Assembly (NCBI GenBank): GCA_964401355.1
Contig: CAYNYJ010000003.1
Span: forward strand, 2,091 to 66,090
Reading direction: 5' to 3'
Origin: an uncultured Ectothiorhodospiraceae bacterium
Lineage (GTDB): Bacteria > Pseudomonadota > Gammaproteobacteria > SZUA-152
Length of the DNA stretch: 64,000 bases
Positions 43,527 through 56,682 of this stretch are shown here, piece after piece (the first letter of the stretch is position 1; every line of letters starts with the position of its first letter). Made by a program: the position numbers and the translations under genes. The notes below the pieces were generated by a model. That model searched no databases. It saw only the letters and a list, made by a program, of their open reading frames with translations, and was not told the DNA's origin.

Positions 43527-46068
43527 CCCCTAATCAATACGCTCGGGAAGAGCGCGACGCTATCTCGACTGCGCCGCGCATTGTGGGCGCAAGTTTCAAT
43601 CCACGCGCTCGGGAAGAGCGCGACCACCAAAAACCGGAACGGAAGCACAAAAGCAGAGTTTCAATCCACGCGCTCGGGAAGAGCGCGACCCTGTGTAACC
43701 ATCCGATGACAACCCGCGCAGGTGTTTCAATCCACGCGCTCGGGAAGAGCGCGACCCCGCTCGACGCATCAACGGCGAGCCCCTATCCACAGTTTCAATC
43801 CACGCGCTCGGGAAGAGCGCGACGCCCTGGCAGATATGAAACGGTTGGCTGAACAGGAGTTTCAATCCACGCGCTCGGGAAGAGCGCGACCCATTAAAAC
43901 GATAAACAGCCCCAATTCCTGATCTGTTTCAATCCACGCGCTCGGGAAGAGCGCGACCCGCTCGGCAGTGAGTGGTGCCGCAGTTGGAGTGGTTTCAATC
44001 CACGCGCTCGGGAAGAGCGCGACTTGCTCCCAGCGTGCAAACCATGGGGCCATGGTGTTTCAATCCACGCGCTCGGGAAGAGCGCGACACAAACATACCG
44101 TAATATTCATCAATGCGCACTTGTTTCAATCCACGCGCTCGGGAAGAGCGCGACTGGGGGCAACGATGTGGTGGGTGCGGTGGGGCCTGTTTCAATCCAC
44201 GCGCTCGGGAAGAGCGCGACCGATCTGGGTGGTGCTGATATGGCTGGTGCCTACGTTTCAATCCACGCGCTCGGGAAGAGCGCGACCACCAAAAACCGGA
44301 ACGGAAGCACAAAAGCAGAGTTTCAATCCACGCGCTCGGGAAGAGCGCGACGATGGACAGATTAATGCTCCAGCTGAAGATCCAAGTTTCAATCCACGCG
44401 CTCGGGAAGAGCGCGACATCCTCAACATACAAATGACACGAACATCTTCCAGTTTCAATCCACGCGCTCGGGAAGAGCGCGACCTTGCGCCTAGGACGCT
44501 GTTTAGCTCGCAGCTCCTGTTTCAATCCACGCGCTCGGGAAGAGCGCGACTACGGCAGTCGATATCTGAGATCGCGTTAACGCAGTTTCAATCCACGCGC
44601 TCGGGAAGAGCGCGACACAATTTAAGCGCTTAAATGATGAAAATTCTATCGTTTCAATCCACGCGCTCGGGAAGAGCGCGACAATGAAATTTAATGTTAT
44701 GGAAGTGGACACAGGGGTTTCAATCCACGCGCTCGGGAAGAGCGCGACCATCCACCAAGTTATTTATGCTGCATGTTTGGTTGTTTCAATCCACGCGCTC
44801 GGGAAGAGCGCGACAGACCGCGAAAGTAGGAGTCCCGCGAAGGCCAGGTTTCAATCCACGCGCTCGGGAAGAGCGCGACAGTCTGGTGAGCCGTCTTATC
44901 GCTCGTACGGCAGGTTTCAATCCACGCGCTCGGGAAGAGCGCGACAACACCACTACCGTCCTCTACATACAAATGGCATGTTTCAATCCACGCGCTCGGG
45001 AAGAGCGCGACAAGCGCTCTTTCGGTTAGAAAACAGCACTTGGCATGTTTCAATCCACGCGCTCGGGAAGAGCGCGACGACCGTGAGATCAGCAGCCCGG
45101 CAAAGGCCAAGAGTTTCAATCCACGCGCTCGGGAAGAGCGCGACATCAGAGAGACCCACAAACGTGAGGATTAATAATGTTTCAATCCACGCGCTCGGGA
45201 AGAGCGCGACGGCCCGACGAGCGGTGCAAAAACACACATAAAAAGTTTCAATCCACGCGCTCGGGAAGAGCGCGACTTCGCTTATAGTGCTAAAAACCTC
45301 TAAATCCTCTGTTTCAATCCACGCGCTCGGGAAGAGCGCGACGATAACTTTTGGTTCGTCTTGGGTCATGAGTTAGTTTCAATCCACGCGCTCGGGAAGA
45401 GCGCGACACATTAGCCATAATTCAACCTTAAAAGTTATAACGTTTCAATCCACGCGCTCGGGAAGAGCGCGACCGCTTCACGAATTGCATCAATGTCGTA
45501 AACCTCTGTTTCAATCCACGCGCTCGGGAAGAGCGCGACGTGCCTCCTGGGTGGGGTTTTGCTTGGATATCAGGTTTCAATCCACGCGCTCGGGAAGAGC
45601 GCGACCCGCTGGGCAGGGTGTAGCGGGGGTTGGTAATGATGTTTCAATCCACGCGCTCGGGAAGAGCGCGACGTGAGCCATGGCCATGTTGCGGATAATG
45701 TCATGCTGTTTCAATCCACGCGCTCGGGAAGAGCGCGACGATTTTCCGTTGTGTGCGTACCATGAGGAGCGGGGTTTCAATCCACGCGCTCGGGAAGAGC
45801 GCGACGCCCACATGAACACCACATGAACCCCACCCCTATGTTTCAATCCACGCGCTCGGGAAGAGCGCGACGAGCCATGGCCATGTTGCGGATAATGTCA
45901 TGCTGTTTCAATCCACGCGCTCGGGAAGAGCGCGACAATTTAATGAGCTGCGCCTGCAAACCCAGCGCCTGTTTCAATCCACGCGCTCGGGAAGAGCGCG
46001 ACAATAAATCGCCAGACTCAAATACGGCAACCAGACGTTTCAATCCACGCGCTCGGGAAGAGCGCGAC
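43527..46068 (-). CRISPR. Type I-C CRISPR array: 38 intact 32-bp repeats, 1 degenerate trailer repeat, 38 spacers of about 33-36 nt
   Basis: Repeat on minus strand GTCGCGCTCTTCCCGAGCGCGTGGATTGAAAC (stem CGCGCTC/GAGCGCG). First intact copy at 43593, last ends at 46068. The degenerate copy at 43527-43558 marks the trailer end. Confidence 0.99.
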
Positions 46069-46244
46069 CGCTCGATTCTAACGTCCTAATTTTTAAAGAA
46101 CAAATACTACTTATCCGCTAACTTAATACAAGATGGGCAAAAAAACCTATCACATCCACCCAACTATTTAATTTTCGTCTTCAAATCATGAGCTTATGCT
46201 TCCGCTAACCGCTATAGGATTTTATGAGAGCACAGGGTTAGCGT
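46069..46244 (-). promoter_or_regulatory. CRISPR leader
   Basis: AT-rich non-coding stretch between the cas2 stop and the first repeat, at the opposite end from the degenerate repeat. Confidence 0.8.
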
Positions 46245-46538
46245 TCATAAGATTAATGTATCACGCACAGGATCCGATACTGCTTTTGCTCCAAGATGTT
46301 CTACTCTTTGCCTTCCTTTCTTTCCGAGCATGTAAAACCGAAGGCTGTCTTCTTCTGGTTCATAAATTTCAATTAACTCATTTTTCAACATGGTGAATTG
46401 TGCAGGATCAACTTCACATTCAAAAACTGAATTTTGTACGCGCATTCCGTAATCCTGGCAGGTCTTAGCAATTCTACGTAATCGTCTTTTCCCTCCTTCG
46501 GATATAACGCTGACATCATAGGTTATAAGTACCAGCAT
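46245..46538 (-). CDS. cas2: CRISPR-associated endoribonuclease Cas2
   Basis: MLVLITYDV, RLRRIAKTCQDYGMRVQNSVFEC, DSLRFY. Confidence 0.97.
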   Translation of the reverse strand: MLVLITYDVSVISEGGKRRLRRIAKTCQDYGMRVQNSVFECEVDPAQFTMLKNELIEIYEPEEDSLRFYMLGKKGRQRVEHLGAKAVSDPVRDTLIL

Positions 46539-46540
46539 AA

Positions 46541-47557
46541 TTATTTCACCAGATAGGGTGTATAAAATTCTGTATCACCACGTATGTGCCGAGCCAGTAA
46601 CATTGCCTGACAATGAGGTAGCAGGCCTATAGGTACCTGTTCTTCTAAATATGGATGCATTATTTCCACTTGCTTTCGCTCTTGCCAAGCCGTTAGCATT
46701 TTCTTTCTCGCATCATCTGATAAACGCACTGCACCGCTGGCTTCAGTAACAAAATCTTTGAGCTGAACTTGTTGGCGATTGATCAGCGTTAAAACAAACC
46801 GATCTGCCCATGGCGCTCGAAACTCTTCTAATAAATCCAGTGCAAGGCTCAGTCTACCGGGTCGATCCTGATGCAAAAAACCAACATAGGGATCTAAACC
46901 TACCCCCTGCAATGCCGAGGCACATTCATGGGTTATTAATGTATATGCAAATGATAATAACGCATTAACCGGATCGGTCGGGGGGCGGCGAACACGGCCG
47001 CCAAAAGCAAAACCACTCCCACGCAAAAGCGCGTTAAACACCCCAAAATAAGTGCTCGCTGCGTCACCTTCGATACCCATAGCTTCTGCTACGGTAACAG
47101 CATTACGAGCACGCCTTAAACTGGTTGCAAGTCGTTTGGCAGCGGTTTCAATTATCTGGTTTTCACCATGATTGCGAATTTCTCGCATCAGTACCGAACG
47201 GCAATTTGCTATTTTAGCAGCCACCATCAACCGGGCAATAAAAATAAATTTTTGCTCATCATCCGCCCACCGATACTGGGTACGTCGTAGCAAAACATTG
47301 CCTGTTTGCTTGCCCTGTATTCGCGCAAGATATTTTCCATATTCTGTATAAAATGACAGCCCTATTCCTTTTTCAGCGCAGTAACCCATCAAAAATGGTG
47401 ATACGGAAATCTGGCCGAAACATAAAATATTGCTTATTGTTAACGCAGGAAACTGTCCAAGCTTATCCTTGCCCTGTTTAATGACAATGGTCTCTCGCTC
47501 TTTATGCAGGTAACTTTCCTGACGAGTAATATAGAGTGTATTCAGAAGTTTTTTCAT
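46541..47557 (-). CDS. cas1: Type I-C Cas1
   Basis: MKKLLNTLYIT, GNVLLRRTQY, MGIEGDAASTYF, RRPPTDPVNALLSF, GFLHQDRPGR, DLLEEFR. Confidence 0.98.
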   Translation of the reverse strand: MKKLLNTLYITRQESYLHKERETIVIKQGKDKLGQFPALTISNILCFGQISVSPFLMGYCAEKGIGLSFYTEYGKYLARIQGKQTGNVLLRRTQYRWADDEQKFIFIARLMVAAKIANCRSVLMREIRNHGENQIIETAAKRLATSLRRARNAVTVAEAMGIEGDAASTYFGVFNALLRGSGFAFGGRVRRPPTDPVNALLSFAYTLITHECASALQGVGLDPYVGFLHQDRPGRLSLALDLLEEFRAPWADRFVLTLINRQQVQLKDFVTEASGAVRLSDDARKKMLTAWQERKQVEIMHPYLEEQVPIGLLPHCQAMLLARHIRGDTEFYTPYLVK

Positions 47558-48183
47558 TCCTGCCCTTCAAATAGCTCATCGATATATTGGCCAGAATGAT
47601 CATTTCTGAAAGTGTCCGGCTCACATAAATCAGTAAGTGAACAGGCTCGGCAACGTTTGACTACTGAGGTAGGTGATGGCGTCTTGCCCGATAGCAGTAA
47701 ATCATGCGCGCCATTTATAACTGCGATAGTAGAAGCACGTAATGCTGCATCAATCTTCACAGGTTCACGACGTCTTACCTCCCAATACCAGATTGCGCCT
47801 TCTGTTACCTGTGTATCGCGCATCTCTTCTATGCATAGCGCCTGTGCGCAAACCTGTATGCGATCCCAGTCCTGCACCTTTGGTTTTCCCCGCTTGTATT
47901 CCACGGGAAAATAACGCGCCTGATCACCAGTTTCTATTTCCAGCAAGTCCATTTTTCCGGTTAGTCCATAGCGTTGCGATTTCAACAAAACACCTCGTTC
48001 ATATCGCACATGCTTGCGCTGCTCAGCAACTCCGGAGTCAACACGTTTGTGCAGAATATTACCTTCTGCTGTAAAGCGATTATCCTCCCACACCTGTTCG
48101 ATATGAATCAGCGCAAACTGGCGTGGACAATAAGCATAGTGTTGCAGGGCAGAGAGCATAATAATTTGTGTATCATCGCTCAT
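47554..48183 (-). CDS. cas4: Cas4 exonuclease
   Basis: LSALQHYAYCPRQ, GKMDLLE, PVEYKRGK, QVCAQALC and C-terminal CRACSLTDLC Fe-S cysteines. Confidence 0.97.
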   Translation of the reverse strand: MSDDTQIIMLSALQHYAYCPRQFALIHIEQVWEDNRFTAEGNILHKRVDSGVAEQRKHVRYERGVLLKSQRYGLTGKMDLLEIETGDQARYFPVEYKRGKPKVQDWDRIQVCAQALCIEEMRDTQVTEGAIWYWEVRRREPVKIDAALRASTIAVINGAHDLLLSGKTPSPTSVVKRCRACSLTDLCEPDTFRNDHSGQYIDELFEGQE

Positions 48184-49187
48184 TTATTCTTATCTTTATT
48201 CTGTAACGCTACCAGCTTGTCAAAGTCTGATTCAAATAGCTTGTCTTGCACAATACGGTATTTCTCAAACTCAGTTTCGGCATAACCCCTGGCAATTTTG
48301 CTGGTAATTTTGCCGCTGCCTTGCAATATGTCGCGTTCATCAAATTCCAGAAATAAATCGAGGCGTTTTATCCAATCCTCCATAGTCATAGGAATTTTGC
48401 GTTTAGCGCGATCTTCGGCCAGATCAAGATAGGCGTTAACGATACGTCCCAGTGATTCAAGTTCTTCCTTTTGCAGATAATTCTTAGCGATGGCAACATC
48501 GGTTTTTACAATTTTTCCCTCGGGAACTTTGTCCCAACTGGTTAGGCCCATGTGCTGTTTTTCACTGTCAGCACGTTGCATGATGAGTTCAGCCGCCGTC
48601 TGTCCATGAATGGCAAAATGAAGTTTATTTTGCACTCTGGCAAAGAAATCCTGGGTGGTTTTATCACTTTTGTTGTAGTCCATGCTGGTGGCATATATAT
48701 CGGTGATTTTTTGGTAGAAGCGGCGTTCGCTCAAACGTATTTCACGAATTTCTGACAGCAATCTTTCAAAGTAGTCTTCATTCAGAAAAGCGCCATTCTC
48801 AAGACGTTTGTTATCCAGCACAAAACCTTTAATGGCAAATTCTCTTAATACCCGGGTCGCCCACTGGCGAAACTGGGTCGCGCGTTTGGAATTGACGCGA
48901 TAACCCACTGATATAATCATGTCCAGATTATAAAAGTTGGTGGGTTTGGTAGAAAATTCGGAATTTCCGAATTTTCTCAGTGTTGCGGCCTCATTCAGCT
49001 CATCGTCGCTGTAGATATTTTTTATATGCTCATTAATTGTCGAAACAGATTTTTCAAACAGCTCAGCAATTAGTTTTTGAGTCAACCAGACCGTCTCATT
49101 CTCAACCCTGACTTCAATGCTGTCCTCCCCTGCCTGGGCCGTAAAAATTAAAAATTCAGCGGTTGAGTTGCGGATTAATTTTTTCAT
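48180..49187 (-). CDS. rhuM: RhuM-family (virulence RhuM) protein inside the cas operon
   Basis: ETVWLTQKLIAELF, STINEHIKNIY, YNLDMIISVGYRVNSKRATQFRQWAT, DYFERLLSEIREIRLSERRFYQKITDIYATS, VQNKLHFAIHGQTAAELI, IAKNYL. TGA overlaps the cas4 ATG. Confidence 0.9.
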   Translation of the reverse strand: MKKLIRNSTAEFLIFTAQAGEDSIEVRVENETVWLTQKLIAELFEKSVSTINEHIKNIYSDDELNEAATLRKFGNSEFSTKPTNFYNLDMIISVGYRVNSKRATQFRQWATRVLREFAIKGFVLDNKRLENGAFLNEDYFERLLSEIREIRLSERRFYQKITDIYATSMDYNKSDKTTQDFFARVQNKLHFAIHGQTAAELIMQRADSEKQHMGLTSWDKVPEGKIVKTDVAIAKNYLQKEELESLGRIVNAYLDLAEDRAKRKIPMTMEDWIKRLDLFLEFDERDILQGSGKITSKIARGYAETEFEKYRIVQDKLFESDFDKLVALQNKDKNK

Positions 49188-49200
49188 TGTGTGTTGTCAC

Positions 49201-50355
49201 TCATCCTGTTGAGTGGAAGTAACCATTGATTGCCAAATCCTTCAAAGGCATCGCTTTTACTTGTTCGGACAGGGAAAATGACTTATCCCCCGGATATACA
49301 ATAACAACTTCTTCCAGATCTAAATCAGACAACGCCGAGCGAATGGAAGGTGTTATCCGGGGAGCATCTGTGCGCTTACATTCAATGCCCACCATGCGGC
49401 CATCTTTACGCAGCAGTAGATCAATCTCAGCCCCCTGATGCGTGGCCCAGAACCAGGCGTCATCAGGCTGCGCCGCAGACAAAACTTCTTCAAGCGCATA
49501 GCCTTCCCAGGATGCGCCAATCTTAGGATGGGTCAACAAATCACGTTGGCTGGTGATACCCAATAATTGATGCAACAAGCCTGAATCGTGAATGTAGATT
49601 TTGGGTGATTTAACCTGTCGTTTACGAATATTGGCATGCCAGGGTTGAAGCTGCCGCACCATAAAAGCATCACTCAACAAATCCAGATAACGACGAGTTG
49701 TGGATTCACTCACACCCATCGCCCGTGCAAACTCAGCGGCATTCCAGATTTGACCATGATAATGCGCCAACATGCTCCAAAATCGCCATAGGGCAGTCGC
49801 CGCAGTGCGTACACCCCACTGAGGAAAATCCCGTTCCAACAGGGTTTGAATAAACTCTTTACGCCAGGCCAGGCTATCCGCCTCATTCGTGGCGAGATAA
49901 GACAACGGAAACCCACCGCGCAACCAATGCTGCTCTTGCTGACTCTCCCCCAACTCCTGCAAACTAAAACCCCGTAAATACAACATTTCCATGCGCCCGG
50001 CCAGAGATTCAAATGACTGCTTCAATAAACCCCCTGAAGCACTCCCCAATATCAGAAACTGCCCGGCAAAGGATCGACGATCCACCAATACCCGCAACAC
50101 CGGAAACAGCTCCGGTCGGCGCTGAATCTCGTCAATCACAATCAAACCCTGTAATGATTCCAGAGCGGTCATGGGCTCATCCAGCCGAACAAGGCTAACT
50201 GGGTCTTCAAGATCAAAATAATTGACAGAATCTTCCGGCACAAAATCTCGCGCCAGCGTGGTTTTGCCGCATTGGCGCGGCCCCACCAGGGTAATGATCC
50301 GGCTGCGTTGCAATGCAGCTTGAATCCGCTTGTGCCAGTGAGTGCGCTTGATCAT
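49201..50355 (-). CDS. AAA+ ATPase (AAA_14) with C-terminal DUF4143 nuclease-like domain
   Basis: VGPRQCGKTT, IDEIQ, ILGS, ESLAGR, WLRGGFP, KSPKIYIHDSGL and C-terminal EIDLLL...GIECK (PD-(D/E)xK-like). Confidence 0.9.
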   Translation of the reverse strand: MIKRTHWHKRIQAALQRSRIITLVGPRQCGKTTLARDFVPEDSVNYFDLEDPVSLVRLDEPMTALESLQGLIVIDEIQRRPELFPVLRVLVDRRSFAGQFLILGSASGGLLKQSFESLAGRMEMLYLRGFSLQELGESQQEQHWLRGGFPLSYLATNEADSLAWRKEFIQTLLERDFPQWGVRTAATALWRFWSMLAHYHGQIWNAAEFARAMGVSESTTRRYLDLLSDAFMVRQLQPWHANIRKRQVKSPKIYIHDSGLLHQLLGITSQRDLLTHPKIGASWEGYALEEVLSAAQPDDAWFWATHQGAEIDLLLRKDGRMVGIECKRTDAPRITPSIRSALSDLDLEEVVIVYPGDKSFSLSEQVKAMPLKDLAINGYFHSTG

Positions 50356-50649: not shown

Positions 50650-51489
50650 TTAAAAACCGTCTATTTCTTCCGCTTTTAAGTTATCCAGTGCTTCAAACTG
50701 ATAACTACCATCAGTATTGACTGTAAGACTATGGTGGACTTTTGCGGATGAATATTGTCCCGATTTATTGTTATGCTTCCACCAGATAACTTTTTCAATT
50801 GCCATGCTGCCTTCAGGTCGTGCGGATGAAGAATCACCCTCAAATAATTTTGGTAAGACTTGTTTAATTTTATCAGCATCCTCATCACTAAAATCTGTCC
50901 GCTCTGCTAGCTGTGGTGACATTGCTCCATAAGTCACATAAATAGCTTTATCAACGCGGTGTTTCATGCCCATGGTATCTGAACTTTTCTTGGTGCCATC
51001 ACCTTCGCCGCTGACACTTTTAGTAATTTGTGTGCTCGTTATGTTGACTGGCTCTACGCTAAAAGCAGATTGAATTGAAACTGGGCCACGAATAGGAATA
51101 GACACACCATCTTTATTTTCACTTTTAAAGGCAAATAATTGACCAAAAGTACGAACATCCATCCATTTTTTGTTAGCAAGACGCGCCGTTTCATCTGGAG
51201 AGGTTTTCTTAACATTGAAAGCGTCTTTACCTAAACCATGCTCATCCGATTCAGCACGAACTTTAAGGCTTGGCATACCATCCGTTTTCTTTTCATCTGT
51301 CTGCACAAATATTGTTTCGCCAGACTCTTGTAGCCGATCACGGATTTTTCGTTTAAGGCAAACATCCGTTACTTCGCCAAAACCATCATAATCAGTACGA
51401 GGTCGGTTTCCATTGAGCGGATCACCATTAGGGTTGGCATTTTTTACACTAAAGATTAGTGCAAAATCAATTTTATTTGTTAATGACAT
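50650..51489 (-). CDS. cas7: Type I-C Cas7 (Csd2)
   Basis: NANPNGDPLNGNRPR, TDVCLKRKIR, DVRTFGQLF, IRGPVSIQ, ITSTQITKS, DTMGMKH, SARPEG. Confidence 0.97.
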   Translation of the reverse strand: MSLTNKIDFALIFSVKNANPNGDPLNGNRPRTDYDGFGEVTDVCLKRKIRDRLQESGETIFVQTDEKKTDGMPSLKVRAESDEHGLGKDAFNVKKTSPDETARLANKKWMDVRTFGQLFAFKSENKDGVSIPIRGPVSIQSAFSVEPVNITSTQITKSVSGEGDGTKKSSDTMGMKHRVDKAIYVTYGAMSPQLAERTDFSDEDADKIKQVLPKLFEGDSSSARPEGSMAIEKVIWWKHNNKSGQYSSAKVHHSLTVNTDGSYQFEALDNLKAEEIDGF

Positions 51490-53531
51490 TAGCTGTCTCC
51501 TTTTAAGGTTTTAGAATCGTTATCATCTGTGCTGTGTTCTTTAAGTATCCACTGTCCATTTTTTAGTTTGTGCTCTCTTAACCATTTTCGTTGGCAATGG
51601 AAACCTAATAGATATTCTCCCTTAAGTTTGGTTGACGAATTAAACTCATCCACCTCAAAAGCATCGGAAATATCATCAAGCAATCGTTTGTAACCTTCTT
51701 CAAGAGGTGCGATTTTACTTCTCAATCTTTGCTGATAAGGAACGATTCCTTTTACAATTACTAACCAGGTGGCTGCGGGGTAATCGACAAATCTTTGCAT
51801 CAAACGACTGGCATTCGTTGACCTAGGTTTTTCATCAGCAACTATCATTGCCATTTCTTCAATTTTTTCTGCAACAGCTAATAAACGACCATAAAGATAG
51901 TCTCGGTTTTTTCTGTCTACTTCTAATGTCATGATGTAATTTCTCCTTTCATTTTCAATTGGTTTTCTTCGGTCATAGCCCTTGAAAAGAGCGCATGCAA
52001 TACAGAGATGTTTTTCCCATAACCATTGCTCATCGTTTTTATAGGCATTACGATTCGTCGCTCTTTGTACAGCTTTCAAAACTAAATCAATGGGAAATGG
52101 GCGCACTTCAACAATGCAAGGCAATATACGTTCTATAGTGTTTTTCTTTAGTGAGTCGTTGACGTTTGTGCCATATACAGCTTCCCAAATTGAACGTGGT
52201 GATGGTGCGCTGATTGGCCATACCGTTTTTTTAGCAGGCTTTGATTTTCCAACATCCACTTCAATTGAATGTCGTTGGTACCATGCAAAATCATTATGCC
52301 ATTGTGAAATACGTTCAATATATTCTTTCGGGAAAAGTTCCTGATGGTAAGTCACTGCCATACGTCCGGGTGTTGCTGAGTCCAGCCCCATAATTACAAT
52401 ATTATCTGTCTCCTTTAATTTAGCCTGATAACCCGCCATATATTTACCTAACGCTTTAGCAAATGACTGACCAAGGTCAATTGTGTGATCAATCTGGTTT
52501 TTCGCTTCAGGTAATGGGGTGGATATTTCCTGAATTTCATCATCAAGATGATCCCAGATATCTTCCATAGGTTGAGGTATTTCTCTTCCTGATACTGCCC
52601 AGGCCACCACTGCTTGATCGCCATTGCGAAAACCTTGCCGTGAAATCAACCACCGTAGCGCATTGTGCGCTTTTTGGGTTACGTCAAAAGAAATCCCAAC
52701 TGACTGTGCGCCTTGTTTTCCCATGCTGTTTTTGGAATCCGTAAACCGGCCTCTAAATGTATAACCAGACATATCATTTGATGACACAAGTTTGGCTTTA
52801 TCTCCAGTATGACGAAGCTTAGCTGGGTGGTTAACGGCCAATGGCGTTTCTTTGCCTGTTATATAGCAAAGCCCCGTTTGATCACTATTAGCTAATTCAT
52901 AATCTACCCATGCTTTTTGTAAATCAGGATCTTTCCATGTATCGCTAACCGGATCTCCTTGTCTCTCTTCGACGCTCCAGCAAACCAACGCATTTCCCTG
53001 GTCGAGCATTCCCTTTTCTTTCGGCAAAACCTTGAATATCTTGGGGGCATCACTCTCGCTGTCTTTTGGCCACGATAGCAATAAGTTACCCTGCTCATCG
53101 ACAAATAGGATTTTATGTTCAACCAAATCCTGAACCACCGCGCCTTTCTCAACATATTTCTTGACTGCTTGCGCTTTAGGGTGGGTATGGGCTGAGCTAC
53201 ACCATCCATCAAGTTGTTTGAGAAAACCGTCAAAATACCCTGGTTTTTTGCCACCATATTTCGGATAATCCTTGGCGACATATTGGATTTTATCTGCCAA
53301 TGGGTGTGGTGCTTCACCGCTACTCCTGCCCGCTGACTTTTCTGTTGCAGGCAAGACTATCTGTGTTTTTTCCAGCACTTCTGCTCGCTTAAAATTTCCA
53401 TCGCTATCAATAGTGATTTTTATATGTGCATTTTGCAGGGTATGACTAATTGGCATGGGTTTCTCTGACTCAGACAGATCAAGTCGCATACCAGATTCAT
53501 AGGTTTCATATAGTTTGGCCATCCAACTCAT
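51489..53531 (-). CDS. cas8c: Type I-C Cas8c (Csd1)
   Basis: MSWMAKLYETY, HPLADKIQY, CYITG, KLVSSND, SQKAHNALRWLI-like motif, LDSATPGRMA, DYLYGRLLAVAE, YLLGFHCQR. Confidence 0.95.
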   Translation of the reverse strand: MSWMAKLYETYESGMRLDLSESEKPMPISHTLQNAHIKITIDSDGNFKRAEVLEKTQIVLPATEKSAGRSSGEAPHPLADKIQYVAKDYPKYGGKKPGYFDGFLKQLDGWCSSAHTHPKAQAVKKYVEKGAVVQDLVEHKILFVDEQGNLLLSWPKDSESDAPKIFKVLPKEKGMLDQGNALVCWSVEERQGDPVSDTWKDPDLQKAWVDYELANSDQTGLCYITGKETPLAVNHPAKLRHTGDKAKLVSSNDMSGYTFRGRFTDSKNSMGKQGAQSVGISFDVTQKAHNALRWLISRQGFRNGDQAVVAWAVSGREIPQPMEDIWDHLDDEIQEISTPLPEAKNQIDHTIDLGQSFAKALGKYMAGYQAKLKETDNIVIMGLDSATPGRMAVTYHQELFPKEYIERISQWHNDFAWYQRHSIEVDVGKSKPAKKTVWPISAPSPRSIWEAVYGTNVNDSLKKNTIERILPCIVEVRPFPIDLVLKAVQRATNRNAYKNDEQWLWEKHLCIACALFKGYDRRKPIENERRNYIMTLEVDRKNRDYLYGRLLAVAEKIEEMAMIVADEKPRSTNASRLMQRFVDYPAATWLVIVKGIVPYQQRLRSKIAPLEEGYKRLLDDISDAFEVDEFNSSTKLKGEYLLGFHCQRKWLREHKLKNGQWILKEHSTDDNDSKTLKGDS

Positions 53532-54262
53532 AAGGCTGCCTCCTCAGTTTCCACTGAAAGCAGGTTGTTACCTTCTTCAAACTGCTTGGCTAGCATGGGG
53601 CGGATAAAACGGCTCACGGTACATGCTTCTGGCCGGGGGAATTCCAGAATACCTTTTTTCATGACGGCATTCCAAAATCGGCTGTGTAATTTGTCCTTGC
53701 CTGTTTCATCCGGGTAATCAAAGCCATGGAACATCAGGCCAAAATCCAGTTCATCAATATCATCGTAAGCACCTTTCCCTTCACCAAATTCACAAGGTTC
53801 AACATAAGCCTGACAATCCCGCGTACCGAGAAATATATCTTGTCTTCCGCCTTTTTCTATTGAGCGTTTTGCTATGGCAAAATGTTTGCCATCAATGCGA
53901 TCTTTGGCTAGTTCAGGCCGGTGCTCATTCCATTCAAAATGCGCCTCTACCTGATATTCCACATCATGCAGGAATGTATAAATTGCAAGGCTATTGCCAC
54001 CACTCCAAACCAGTGGTTTTGTGCCTTTAGTTTGTGTGCGCAGTGATTTCATTACTCTGACTTTATCGACATGCCAGATAAACGTGGGTTTCCAGTAAAT
54101 GGACTTCAATACGCCTTTTATGGCTTCATAAGTAGGCAAGTGATAAGTACTTTTCTCGCCACCAATCTTGGTTACGGGGTCAGTAAACAGGGCATAACGG
54201 GCATACACTTTAAAACTGACACTGTTTTTTGGTGTTTTATGCATTCGAGTTCCTCCTAACAA
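53528..54262 (-). CDS. cas5: Type I-C Cas5 (Cas5d, pre-crRNA processing)
   Basis: YALFTDP...GEKSTYHLPTYEAIKG, IYWKPT, LHDVEY, FLGTRDC, LMFHGFDYP. Confidence 0.96.
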   Translation of the reverse strand: MLGGTRMHKTPKNSVSFKVYARYALFTDPVTKIGGEKSTYHLPTYEAIKGVLKSIYWKPTFIWHVDKVRVMKSLRTQTKGTKPLVWSGGNSLAIYTFLHDVEYQVEAHFEWNEHRPELAKDRIDGKHFAIAKRSIEKGGRQDIFLGTRDCQAYVEPCEFGEGKGAYDDIDELDFGLMFHGFDYPDETGKDKLHSRFWNAVMKKGILEFPRPEACTVSRFIRPMLAKQFEEGNNLLSVETEEAAL

Positions 54263-56682
54263 TGATTGAAATCCATTGAGCTACACCGCTTATCCGACAA
54301 GCCAAACTCATCGCTATAATATTGTTTGTCCAGCCAATAAATACCTTCACCGGGCTGTATTTCATAAACGGCTTTTTCTTTTTGCAGCCGTTTCCATACA
54401 TTGGGAAATACATTAACACTGAATCTTTGTGCTTGCTTGAGTAGCTGTCTATATGTTTTCACATCAAATTCTTTTGCAACACGACCTAGCTCAGCTATCA
54501 GGTGTTTAGCCTCGTCATTATAAGGAACTATCACTGCCTGAGTGGGTGAGTCGATAGCTTTAAAGGCTTTTCCAGCAGCCATGAAGGACTGTTGCAGTAA
54601 TCCTGATTTTTCACTGCGACCTATATTTTTTGTATTATTGCTTAATAGGTTTAATAAATTATCATTCCTTCCGATTTGCCTAGCAGTGACAGGGTAAGCC
54701 ATTTCATCAGCACGGTCATAAAAATAATAATTAAAGTATTGCTTTATGGCATTTGGTGCTAATAAATCATCAAATTTCTCATCGAAAATACGCTGAGCCT
54801 TATCTATACCAATCTTTATATCTTTTAATAGATCAATTTTTTCTTCGCAAGGATTGATAACATGAACGGTTGCCATTTCTTGAAGTCCATTACGGTTGCA
54901 GCGTCCTGCTGCCTGAGCAATAGAATCTAACCCCGCAAGAAAACGTATAACAGAAGCGAAATCTACATCGACACCCGCCTCAATAAGTTGGGTGCTGACA
55001 CATAGCACGGGTAGGCTTTGTTCTAATCGCTGACGAATTTTTTTAAATATCGCTTTGCGATGTGCCGGGCAAAGGTTAGTGCTTAATTGAAAGATTGATT
55101 CATTGTCTACTTTAGGACTTAAAGCCTGATAAAGTTGTTGCGCCCATGACTTTGTATTGACAATAATAAGGCAGCTACCTAGTTTTTCAAATTCACTGAA
55201 AGCCAGTTCCGAAATTTGTTCTGCCGTCCACCCTTCTGGTTTTAGGTTAGGTACAACTTTTGCGCGCTGTAAATCTTCGAATAGTTTTGTCACATTACCC
55301 GCCAGTTCATTTTCTTTAGGTATTGTTAACTGTCCTTTCTCTGGTGTTTTAAGATTATCAAGCAAAGGCTGTGTAGCCGTGCAAAGCACAGCGGTTGTAT
55401 TGCAGTAGTTGGTGAGAAAATTAAGTGCATTGCAAAATAGGTGCGTGCAGTTAATGGGCAGGGTCTGGATTTCATCAAATATCAGCACGCTATTGGCCAG
55501 TTGGTGCATTTTCCTTGCGCCTCTTGTCCCTCCTGAAAATAGCACTTCGAGAAATTGCACCATGGTGGTCATTACAATCGGCGCATCCCAGTTCTCTGAA
55601 ACGATTTTGCTATGCCATGTTTGTGTCTCAGGCTCTAAATTGGAATGTTGTTCCAGCACCCACGGGCATTCATCTTTTGAACACTCAATGAGTTCGCGTA
55701 TCGCTTGTGCATTTTGTTCAATAATGGACGTGAAAGGAATAATGTAGATAATACGGTCTGATTTATGCTCTTCTGCATGATGAAGGGCGTAACGCAAACT
55801 TGCATAAGTTTTGCCTCCACCCGTTGGTACAGTAAGGCTGTAAATACCTTGTTTGCCTTTTGCGCGTTGTTTGCAGTTGTCTGAAATATTTCGTCGCAAC
55901 TTATCTATGGGCTTTTCGCCACTGAATTCTTTAATAGCGGATTCAAGACGGTTGACTGGAATTGACCAATTTACAGGAGAGTTGTTTCTGTGCTGTGTAT
56001 TTTCAGGACATTCAAAATCAGCACTGTTAATTCGATCTGCATCAACCAGGCAACTGAATAACATACGCGTCCAGAAACCTAAATTAAACGATTGGATAGT
56101 TACTGGAAGTTTCTCATTTTCAATTTTAATGATTTTCTTTAGTTGAGTTAATATATTTTTCAACAACTCTTTATCTGCCAAATCACTTATCTTTTCCAGA
56201 TAGTGTTGTGGTGCATTTTTCAGGCATTCATTTTTATGTGTTTTATCGTCTGGTTTGTTCATTCTGTCTGAAAAGCCATTATCACCATCTGGTTTAAGGC
56301 AATCAATTAGGCCGCTGTGATGAGACGCAACACATAAGGCGAGTATCTGACCAACAAGTTGACCTTGTGCGCCCCACTTTCCATAACTTTGCCACACCCA
56401 TTGAGCACCAGCACTGGAATGATCTATTTTTCCTTTTAGACTTTTAAAGTCCACATACTCATCTTCATCAGGATTGATCTTTCCAGTCGCAGATCCAATA
56501 TAGTCCTGAAAGACTTGGCTATATTTACCTAAGTCATGCAGTAAGCCGAGTAGTTGTCCAGCACCAGAAACCTCCAGCTTGGCTGCTAAACGTCCAGCTA
56601 TTTCACCTACTTCATCAAGGTGGGTTCCCAACGTCTGGTCTTTTGCATCTTTTTTTCTATGATGCGCTATGAACTTTTTCAT
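54256..56682 (-). CDS. cas3: Cas3 HD nuclease-helicase
   Basis: HD domain (HLDEV, LLHDLGK, SHHSGL, LVDADR), TVPTGGGKT, DEIQ, STQLIEAGVDVD, QAAGRCNR. Confidence 0.97.
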   Translation of the reverse strand: MKKFIAHHRKKDAKDQTLGTHLDEVGEIAGRLAAKLEVSGAGQLLGLLHDLGKYSQVFQDYIGSATGKINPDEDEYVDFKSLKGKIDHSSAGAQWVWQSYGKWGAQGQLVGQILALCVASHHSGLIDCLKPDGDNGFSDRMNKPDDKTHKNECLKNAPQHYLEKISDLADKELLKNILTQLKKIIKIENEKLPVTIQSFNLGFWTRMLFSCLVDADRINSADFECPENTQHRNNSPVNWSIPVNRLESAIKEFSGEKPIDKLRRNISDNCKQRAKGKQGIYSLTVPTGGGKTYASLRYALHHAEEHKSDRIIYIIPFTSIIEQNAQAIRELIECSKDECPWVLEQHSNLEPETQTWHSKIVSENWDAPIVMTTMVQFLEVLFSGGTRGARKMHQLANSVLIFDEIQTLPINCTHLFCNALNFLTNYCNTTAVLCTATQPLLDNLKTPEKGQLTIPKENELAGNVTKLFEDLQRAKVVPNLKPEGWTAEQISELAFSEFEKLGSCLIIVNTKSWAQQLYQALSPKVDNESIFQLSTNLCPAHRKAIFKKIRQRLEQSLPVLCVSTQLIEAGVDVDFASVIRFLAGLDSIAQAAGRCNRNGLQEMATVHVINPCEEKIDLLKDIKIGIDKAQRIFDEKFDDLLAPNAIKQYFNYYFYDRADEMAYPVTARQIGRNDNLLNLLSNNTKNIGRSEKSGLLQQSFMAAGKAFKAIDSPTQAVIVPYNDEAKHLIAELGRVAKEFDVKTYRQLLKQAQRFSVNVFPNVWKRLQKEKAVYEIQPGEGIYWLDKQYYSDEFGLSDKRCSSMDFNHC

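Follow-up and report, generated by a model that had tools for sequence, protein, structure and literature searches.

Two overlapping spacers in a type I-C CRISPR array of an uncultured deep-sea gammaproteobacterium probably record two diverged variants of one mobile-element gene

How a single CRISPR array comes to hold two spacers that spell out nearly the same stretch of protein in different codons is the question raised by a locus of an uncultured deep-sea gammaproteobacterium (assembly of 3.24 Mb in 146 contigs). All coordinates given here refer to the window, that is, the whole stretch of 64,000 nucleotides that was analysed. An earlier note on this DNA had proposed that both spacers hit one coding motif in two sequence variants of an invader, and had offered two accounts of them, namely two related phage or plasmid genotypes, or an escape variant followed by primed re-acquisition.

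The array (43527-46068, minus strand) consists of 39 repeats and 38 spacers. All repeats but one are perfect 32-nt copies, the single degenerate copy being the terminal one at 43527, which marks the trailer, and the leader-proximal, newest end lies at 46068. Spacers are numbered here from the old, trailer end (sp1 onwards), so that a higher window coordinate means a newer spacer. On the minus strand the repeat reads GTCGCGCTCTTCCCGAGCGCGTGGATTGAAAC; it begins with GTCGCGC, ends with GGATTGAAAC and folds into a 7-bp stem with a 5-nt loop and an 11-nt tail (-12.5 kcal/mol). This combination of a stem-loop and an 11-nt 3' tail, which gives rise to the 5' handle, is the type I-C repeat form, and the same form is found in relatives whose Cas1 is 82-86% identical. 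Spacer lengths of 33-36 nt across the array (43559-46036) likewise fit the range of about 33-37 nt typical of type I-C, in which the PAM-distal end varies. Comparison of the repeat with Rfam returned no family at the gathering score, and the exact repeat had no match in the GTDB genome contigs, where no other species representative carries it.

The array is accompanied by a complete type I-C gene set (cas3, cas5c, cas8c or Csd1, cas7c, cas4, cas1 and cas2, without cas6), with Pfam matches for all seven genes on the minus strand between 46245 and 56682. The adaptation genes (46245-48183) are cas2 (46245-46538), cas1 (46541-47557) and cas4 (47554-48183), matching CRISPR_Cas2, Cas_Cas1 and Cas_Cas4, and the interference genes (50650-56682) are cas7c (50650-51489), cas8c/Csd1 (51489-53531), cas5c (53528-54262) and cas3 (54256-56682), matching Cas_Cas7, Cas_Csd1, Cas_Cas5d and Cas3_HD plus helicase, respectively. 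Inserted between cas7 and cas4 of this otherwise canonical operon are a RhuM-family gene (48180-49187) and a gene for an AAA_14/DUF4143 ATPase (49201-50355). The nearest Cas1 relatives, those at 82-86% identity, belong to metagenome-assembled gammaproteobacteria from deep-sea crustal fluids and hydrothermal sites, and an exact-sequence look-up of the host Cas2, meant to find other versions of the array, returned no record. Because the cas genes lie directly to the right of the array on the minus strand, the array is transcribed from that strand. An AT-rich leader (46069-46244, minus strand) separates cas2 from the first repeat, and minus-strand transcription together with a leader adjoining cas2 makes sp14 the older and sp22 the newer of the two entries in question.

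In base composition the spacers range from 0.26 to 0.71 GC, against 0.506 for the genome, and appear over-dispersed. An AT-rich group includes sp9, sp14, sp17-19, sp25 and sp27-29, and a GC-rich group includes sp1, sp4, sp7, sp10, sp20, sp24 and sp32, which suggests that the invaders fall into two or more classes by composition. One member of the AT-rich group, sp17 (44617-44650), contains a perfect 16-nt palindrome (ATTTAAGCGCTTAAAT), seen in blastn-short as a self-match on the opposite strand; an inverted repeat, for instance an operator or a terminator, is likely in the target of this spacer.

The two spacers in question are sp14 (44418-44451, minus strand, 34 nt), which reads TGGAAGATGTTCGTGTCATTTGTATGTTGAGGAT in the crRNA sense, and sp22 (44946-44979, minus strand, 34 nt), which reads ATGCCATTTGTATGTAGAGGACGGTAGTGGTGTT. 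They overlap by 22 nt on the same strand, with sp22 starting at position 13 of sp14 (an offset of 12 nt downstream), and match at 18 of the 22 positions. The four differences fall at overlap positions 1, 4, 16 and 22, corresponding to positions 13, 16, 28 and 34 of sp14; all of them are silent and share one codon phase. Frame +1 of the crRNA sense is the only one of the six frames that is open in both spacers, and in it sp14 encodes GRCSCHLYVED and sp22 CHLYVEDGSGV, with no amino-acid change over the overlap. The earlier note had described seven shared codons with three silent differences; its reverse complements, the silence of the changes and their single phase all stand, but the count does not, since the note had left out the base with which sp22 begins, an A where sp14 has G, so that three differences over 21 nt were counted instead of four over 22. 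When mismatch patterns of period 3 are scored, the pair reaches 12.0, against a maximum of 7.5 in 40 shuffles. Phase-locked silent differences, a single open frame and a shared strand together argue that both spacers come from one coding locus, as had been proposed, and the chimeric peptide reconstructed from them, GRCSCHLYVEDGSGV, holds up as the only consistent reading of the two. The target gene, its mobile-element nature and its reading frame are read from the 46 nt that sp14 and sp22 jointly cover, and we infer them on that footing.

The PAM of the newer spacer can be read from the older one. Positions 10-12 of sp14 are TTC (44440-44442, minus strand; GAA on the plus strand), directly 5' of the start of the sp22 protospacer, where this triplet is the type I-C PAM as seen in the variant from which sp14 was taken (variant A). 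In Legionella, TTC accounts for about 90% of type I-C acquisitions (Rao et al. 2017, PMC5602111). The check for a 5'-TTC PAM that the earlier note had advised therefore comes out positive for sp22, being legible inside sp14 without the target in hand. From a TTC right before the sp22 site it follows that sp14 and sp22 share locus and strand, that the array has been oriented correctly (the opposite orientation would give the triplet ACC) and that the protospacer, or non-target, strand is the one that codes in the target. A second pair, sp20 and sp24, points the same way in part, in that the first two bases of sp24 (TC) coincide with the last two PAM positions in the register of sp20. The 5'-TTC PAM of type I-C thus appears to be present, as judged indirectly from the TTC in sp14 before sp22 and from the two of three PAM positions that sp24 fills for sp20.

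This second variant pair consists of the older sp20 (44815-44847, minus strand, 33 nt, LAFAGLLLSRS) and the newer sp24 (45079-45112, minus strand, 34 nt, LAFAGLLISR), which begins 2 nt upstream of the sp20 register. Aligned at this 2-nt offset, the two agree at 23 of 32 positions; of the nine differences, seven share a phase and eight are silent. The phase-aware score is 12.5 against a shuffled maximum of 7.5. In terms of overlap with differences, both sp14/sp22 (22 nt, four differences) and sp20/sp24 (32 nt, nine differences) beat every shuffle. The former pair is AT-rich (38-44% GC) whereas the latter is GC-rich (62-64%), so that the two probably derive from different source elements. Two further pairs are repeated captures of a single site. 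The 33-mers of sp2 (43625-43657, minus strand) and sp12 (44287-44319) are identical and have different neighbours, which argues that the same protospacer was acquired twice rather than that a block of the array was duplicated. Likewise, sp33 (45673-45707, minus strand, 35 nt) and sp36 (45872-45904, 33 nt) stem from the same protospacer, having a common PAM-proximal end and distal ends that differ by 2 nt. Redundant spacers thus amount to eight of the 38, in four pairs. A candidate third diverged pair, sp10 (44155-44188) and sp32 (45606-45640), overlaps by 26 nt with ten differences, seven of them in one phase; its phase score of 4.5 is within the shuffled range and is not significant.

The source of these spacers was sought in the host and in sequence collections. 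When all 38 spacers were compared by blastn-short with the 146 contigs of the host, the hits were confined to the array and to chance matches of 13-16 nt, with no second copy of any spacer, and a six-frame peptide search of the host genome likewise returned only the spacers. A self-targeting or prophage source was considered and rejected on these results; a 16-nt match on another contig (C104) reads DTDLYVEEF and has unrelated flanks. Since the rest of the host genome contains no copy of any spacer, their source is foreign to the assembly, and storage in a CRISPR array combined with absence from the host would point to a mobile element.

Spacers and target were also looked for in viral and plasmid collections, as the earlier note had advised, and in genome and metagenome contigs, and no target was recovered from them. 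Searches by blastn with each spacer against phages, and with the whole array against phages and plasmids, gave no protospacer among isolated phages and plasmids; the matches that did appear were repeat-to-repeat alignments with other type I-C arrays and chance matches of 17-28 nt, one of which straddles a repeat boundary. Seven codon-degenerate or exact patterns had no match in the IMG/VR viral contigs, and two target patterns had none in the GTDB genome contigs. Two matches from a single scan of metagenome contigs were dismissed as chance: one (L002) is not in an open frame, and the other (L003) falls within a Cof-type HAD hydrolase (…LELSCHLYVEDILYA…), with identity only where the pattern forced it and with different flanks. 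Neither a DNA search with the array nor a pattern allowing 3 mismatches recovered a protospacer from 32 family genomes, and 400 genomes sampled from the class yielded none either. Weak matches of sp24 in relatives were traced to hydrophobic …AFAGL… segments of ordinary chromosomal ORFs (22-25 of 34 positions identical, without TTC). Finally, none of 323 distinct spacers from related type I-C arrays is held in common with the host array.

Several explanations of the sp14/sp22 pair have to be weighed. That two unrelated spacers resemble each other by chance is hardly credible. The overlap is only 22 nt long and the best shuffled score (9) comes close to the observed one (10), but sp14/sp22 is the top non-identical alignment among all spacer pairs on both strands and none of 200 shuffled sets reached its score. 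Moreover, all four differences fall in one phase, for which the chance is 1/27, and change no amino acid in the sole open frame, a TTC stands at the exact junction, for which the chance is 1/64, and a second pair bears the same signature. More serious, though still improbable, is that one invader genome carried two diverged copies of the motif, as paralogous genes or as an internal repeat, in which case the array would have recorded a single genotype. Old paralogues would show silent, phase-locked differences just as well, the 46 nt offer no means of telling paralogues from alleles, and no target was recovered from the collections searched. Against them stands the second variant pair, whose base composition differs from that of the first, and same-register variant pairs occur in related type I-C arrays as well; to suppose duplicated genes in every invader is less economical than to suppose repeated meetings with related elements, and in the documented type I-C case, that of LME-1 (PMC5071653), the sequences are variants of one element.

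The best reading of the pair, to which we assign a probability of roughly 0.8, is therefore sequential capture of sp14 and then sp22 from two diverged variants of one mobile-element gene. The bacterium would have met variant A first and stored sp14, and later a relative carrying variant B, from which sp22 was stored, with Cas4-Cas1-Cas2 presumably cutting each prespacer beside a TTC; the same process would also have yielded sp20/sp24 and the two re-captures of identical sites (sp2/sp12 and sp33/sp36). The divergence between the two sources, four silent changes in 22 nt, is about 18%. Of the two accounts in the earlier note, that of two related genotypes fits best, silent differences at this level being those of diverged lineages. 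The visible changes do not look like escape mutations, since they leave the encoded peptide intact, are numerous and spare both PAM and seed of the older spacer, where selection for escape acts, and the part of the proposal that invoked an escape variant is not borne out. Each crRNA would protect mainly against its own variant. Because sp22 has mismatches to variant A at positions 1, 4, 16 and 22, two of them (1 and 4) in the seed, it should give no protection against A. Conversely, sp14 would face variant B with mismatches at positions 13, 16, 28 and 34, none of which is a flipped-out sixth position, and at the observed rate about two more probably lie within its unseen first 12 nt. With each spacer largely specific to its variant, holding both would widen immunity against the lineage.

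How sp22 came to be taken within the footprint of sp14 is a separate matter, internal to sequential capture. In primed adaptation, the sp14 crRNA would have bound the mismatched site of variant B and recruited Cas3 and Cas1-Cas2-Cas4; the rival is independent, naive capture at a hotspot. We put priming at even odds or slightly worse. By our own estimate for uniform sampling, an overlapping pair is expected in about 2 of about 1,250 choices of a TTC site in a 40-kb genome, and four overlapping or identical pairs among 38 spacers far exceed what uniform sampling of a phage-sized genome would give. Sampling was therefore non-uniform, for which priming, hotspots or a very small invader genome would each suffice. 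Type I-C priming works with mismatched and with perfect targets (PMC5602111), its acquisitions are enriched near the priming site and mostly on the same strand, as in both variant pairs here, and Rao et al. 2016 interpret their Legionella pairs likewise, as possible priming (PMC5071653). However, type I-C has strong sequence-intrinsic hotspots, irrespective of the priming strand, which would look alike without priming (PMC5602111), as would capture from a small invader genome. Both variant pairs overlap on the same strand, but with two of two pairs (p = 0.25) this is too weak to favour priming, and hotspots or a small genome would account for it equally well. In addition, the partners stand eight and four array positions apart, so that acquisition need not have been immediate.

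The pattern of sp14 and sp22 is already documented for type I-C in Legionella, and no new mechanism is revealed by it. In the type I-C array of L. pneumophila str. Toronto-2005, two overlapping spacer pairs are directed against LME-1, the older spacers being mismatched and the newer ones perfect (Rao et al. 2016, PMC5071653). The subtype is the same as here, and in both cases two pairs fall on overlapping regions of one element, were acquired at different times and differ in sequence between older and newer members. In Legionella, however, the target is known and the older spacers have PAM or seed mismatches to the current variant, whereas here the spacers alone are read, and their four (or nine) differences lie outside the seed of the older spacer and are silent or nearly so, which indicates a deeper divergence of about 18-28% over the overlap.

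Type I-C adaptation in L. pneumophila is further characterized by a TTC PAM, hotspots, an inexact PAM-distal ruler and a same-strand bias of 64-83% (Rao et al. 2017, PMC5602111). The present array resembles it in the TTC PAM, in spacers of 33-37 nt measured by an inexact PAM-distal ruler (compare sp33 and sp36, 35 and 33 nt) and in repeated capture of the same site, although those were laboratory experiments with plasmids and this is a natural array of an uncultured deep-sea bacterium. Arrays of L. pneumophila also re-sample the diverged capsid genes of Microviridae (Gokushovirinae) (Deecker et al. 2021 preprint, 10.1101/2021.03.08.434514). There, a small phage has diverged relatives whose conserved coding sequence is hit by many spacers, a setting in which overlapping spacers are expected; the spacers of the present array, by contrast, have no match in phage records or viral contigs.

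Related type I-C arrays hold about five comparable pairs in about 311 spacers, against four in 38 here. In Vreelandella utahensis DSM 3051 (L040), spacers 33 and 39 stand in the same register and differ at three positions, all of one phase; in another array (L038) spacers 6 and 10 overlap at an offset of 10 with two differences, and in a third (L030) spacers 16 and 22 are identical duplicates. Two species of one genus each carry a spacer from a common locus (L025, G003:C120, at 1173, and L027, G006:C270, at 783), with 21 of 30 positions identical at an offset of 3 and six of the nine differences in one phase, which is the same phenomenon as sp14/sp22 across genomes.

A broader idea, which we hold only tentatively and consider more probably wrong than right, is that the four redundant pairs document cross-variant ("heterologous") priming in nature, whereby old spacers with at least four mismatches would steer acquisitions into their own footprint when a relative of about 80% identity arrives, the invaders belonging to mobile-element lineages so far missing from viral, plasmid, genome and metagenome collections. 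Whatever the route of capture, the spacers alone yield the orientation of the array, the PAM, the coding strand and frame of the target and a silent divergence of about 18% between invader lineages. They tell of a deep-sea host that met related elements repeatedly and whose type I-C system samples its targets very unevenly.
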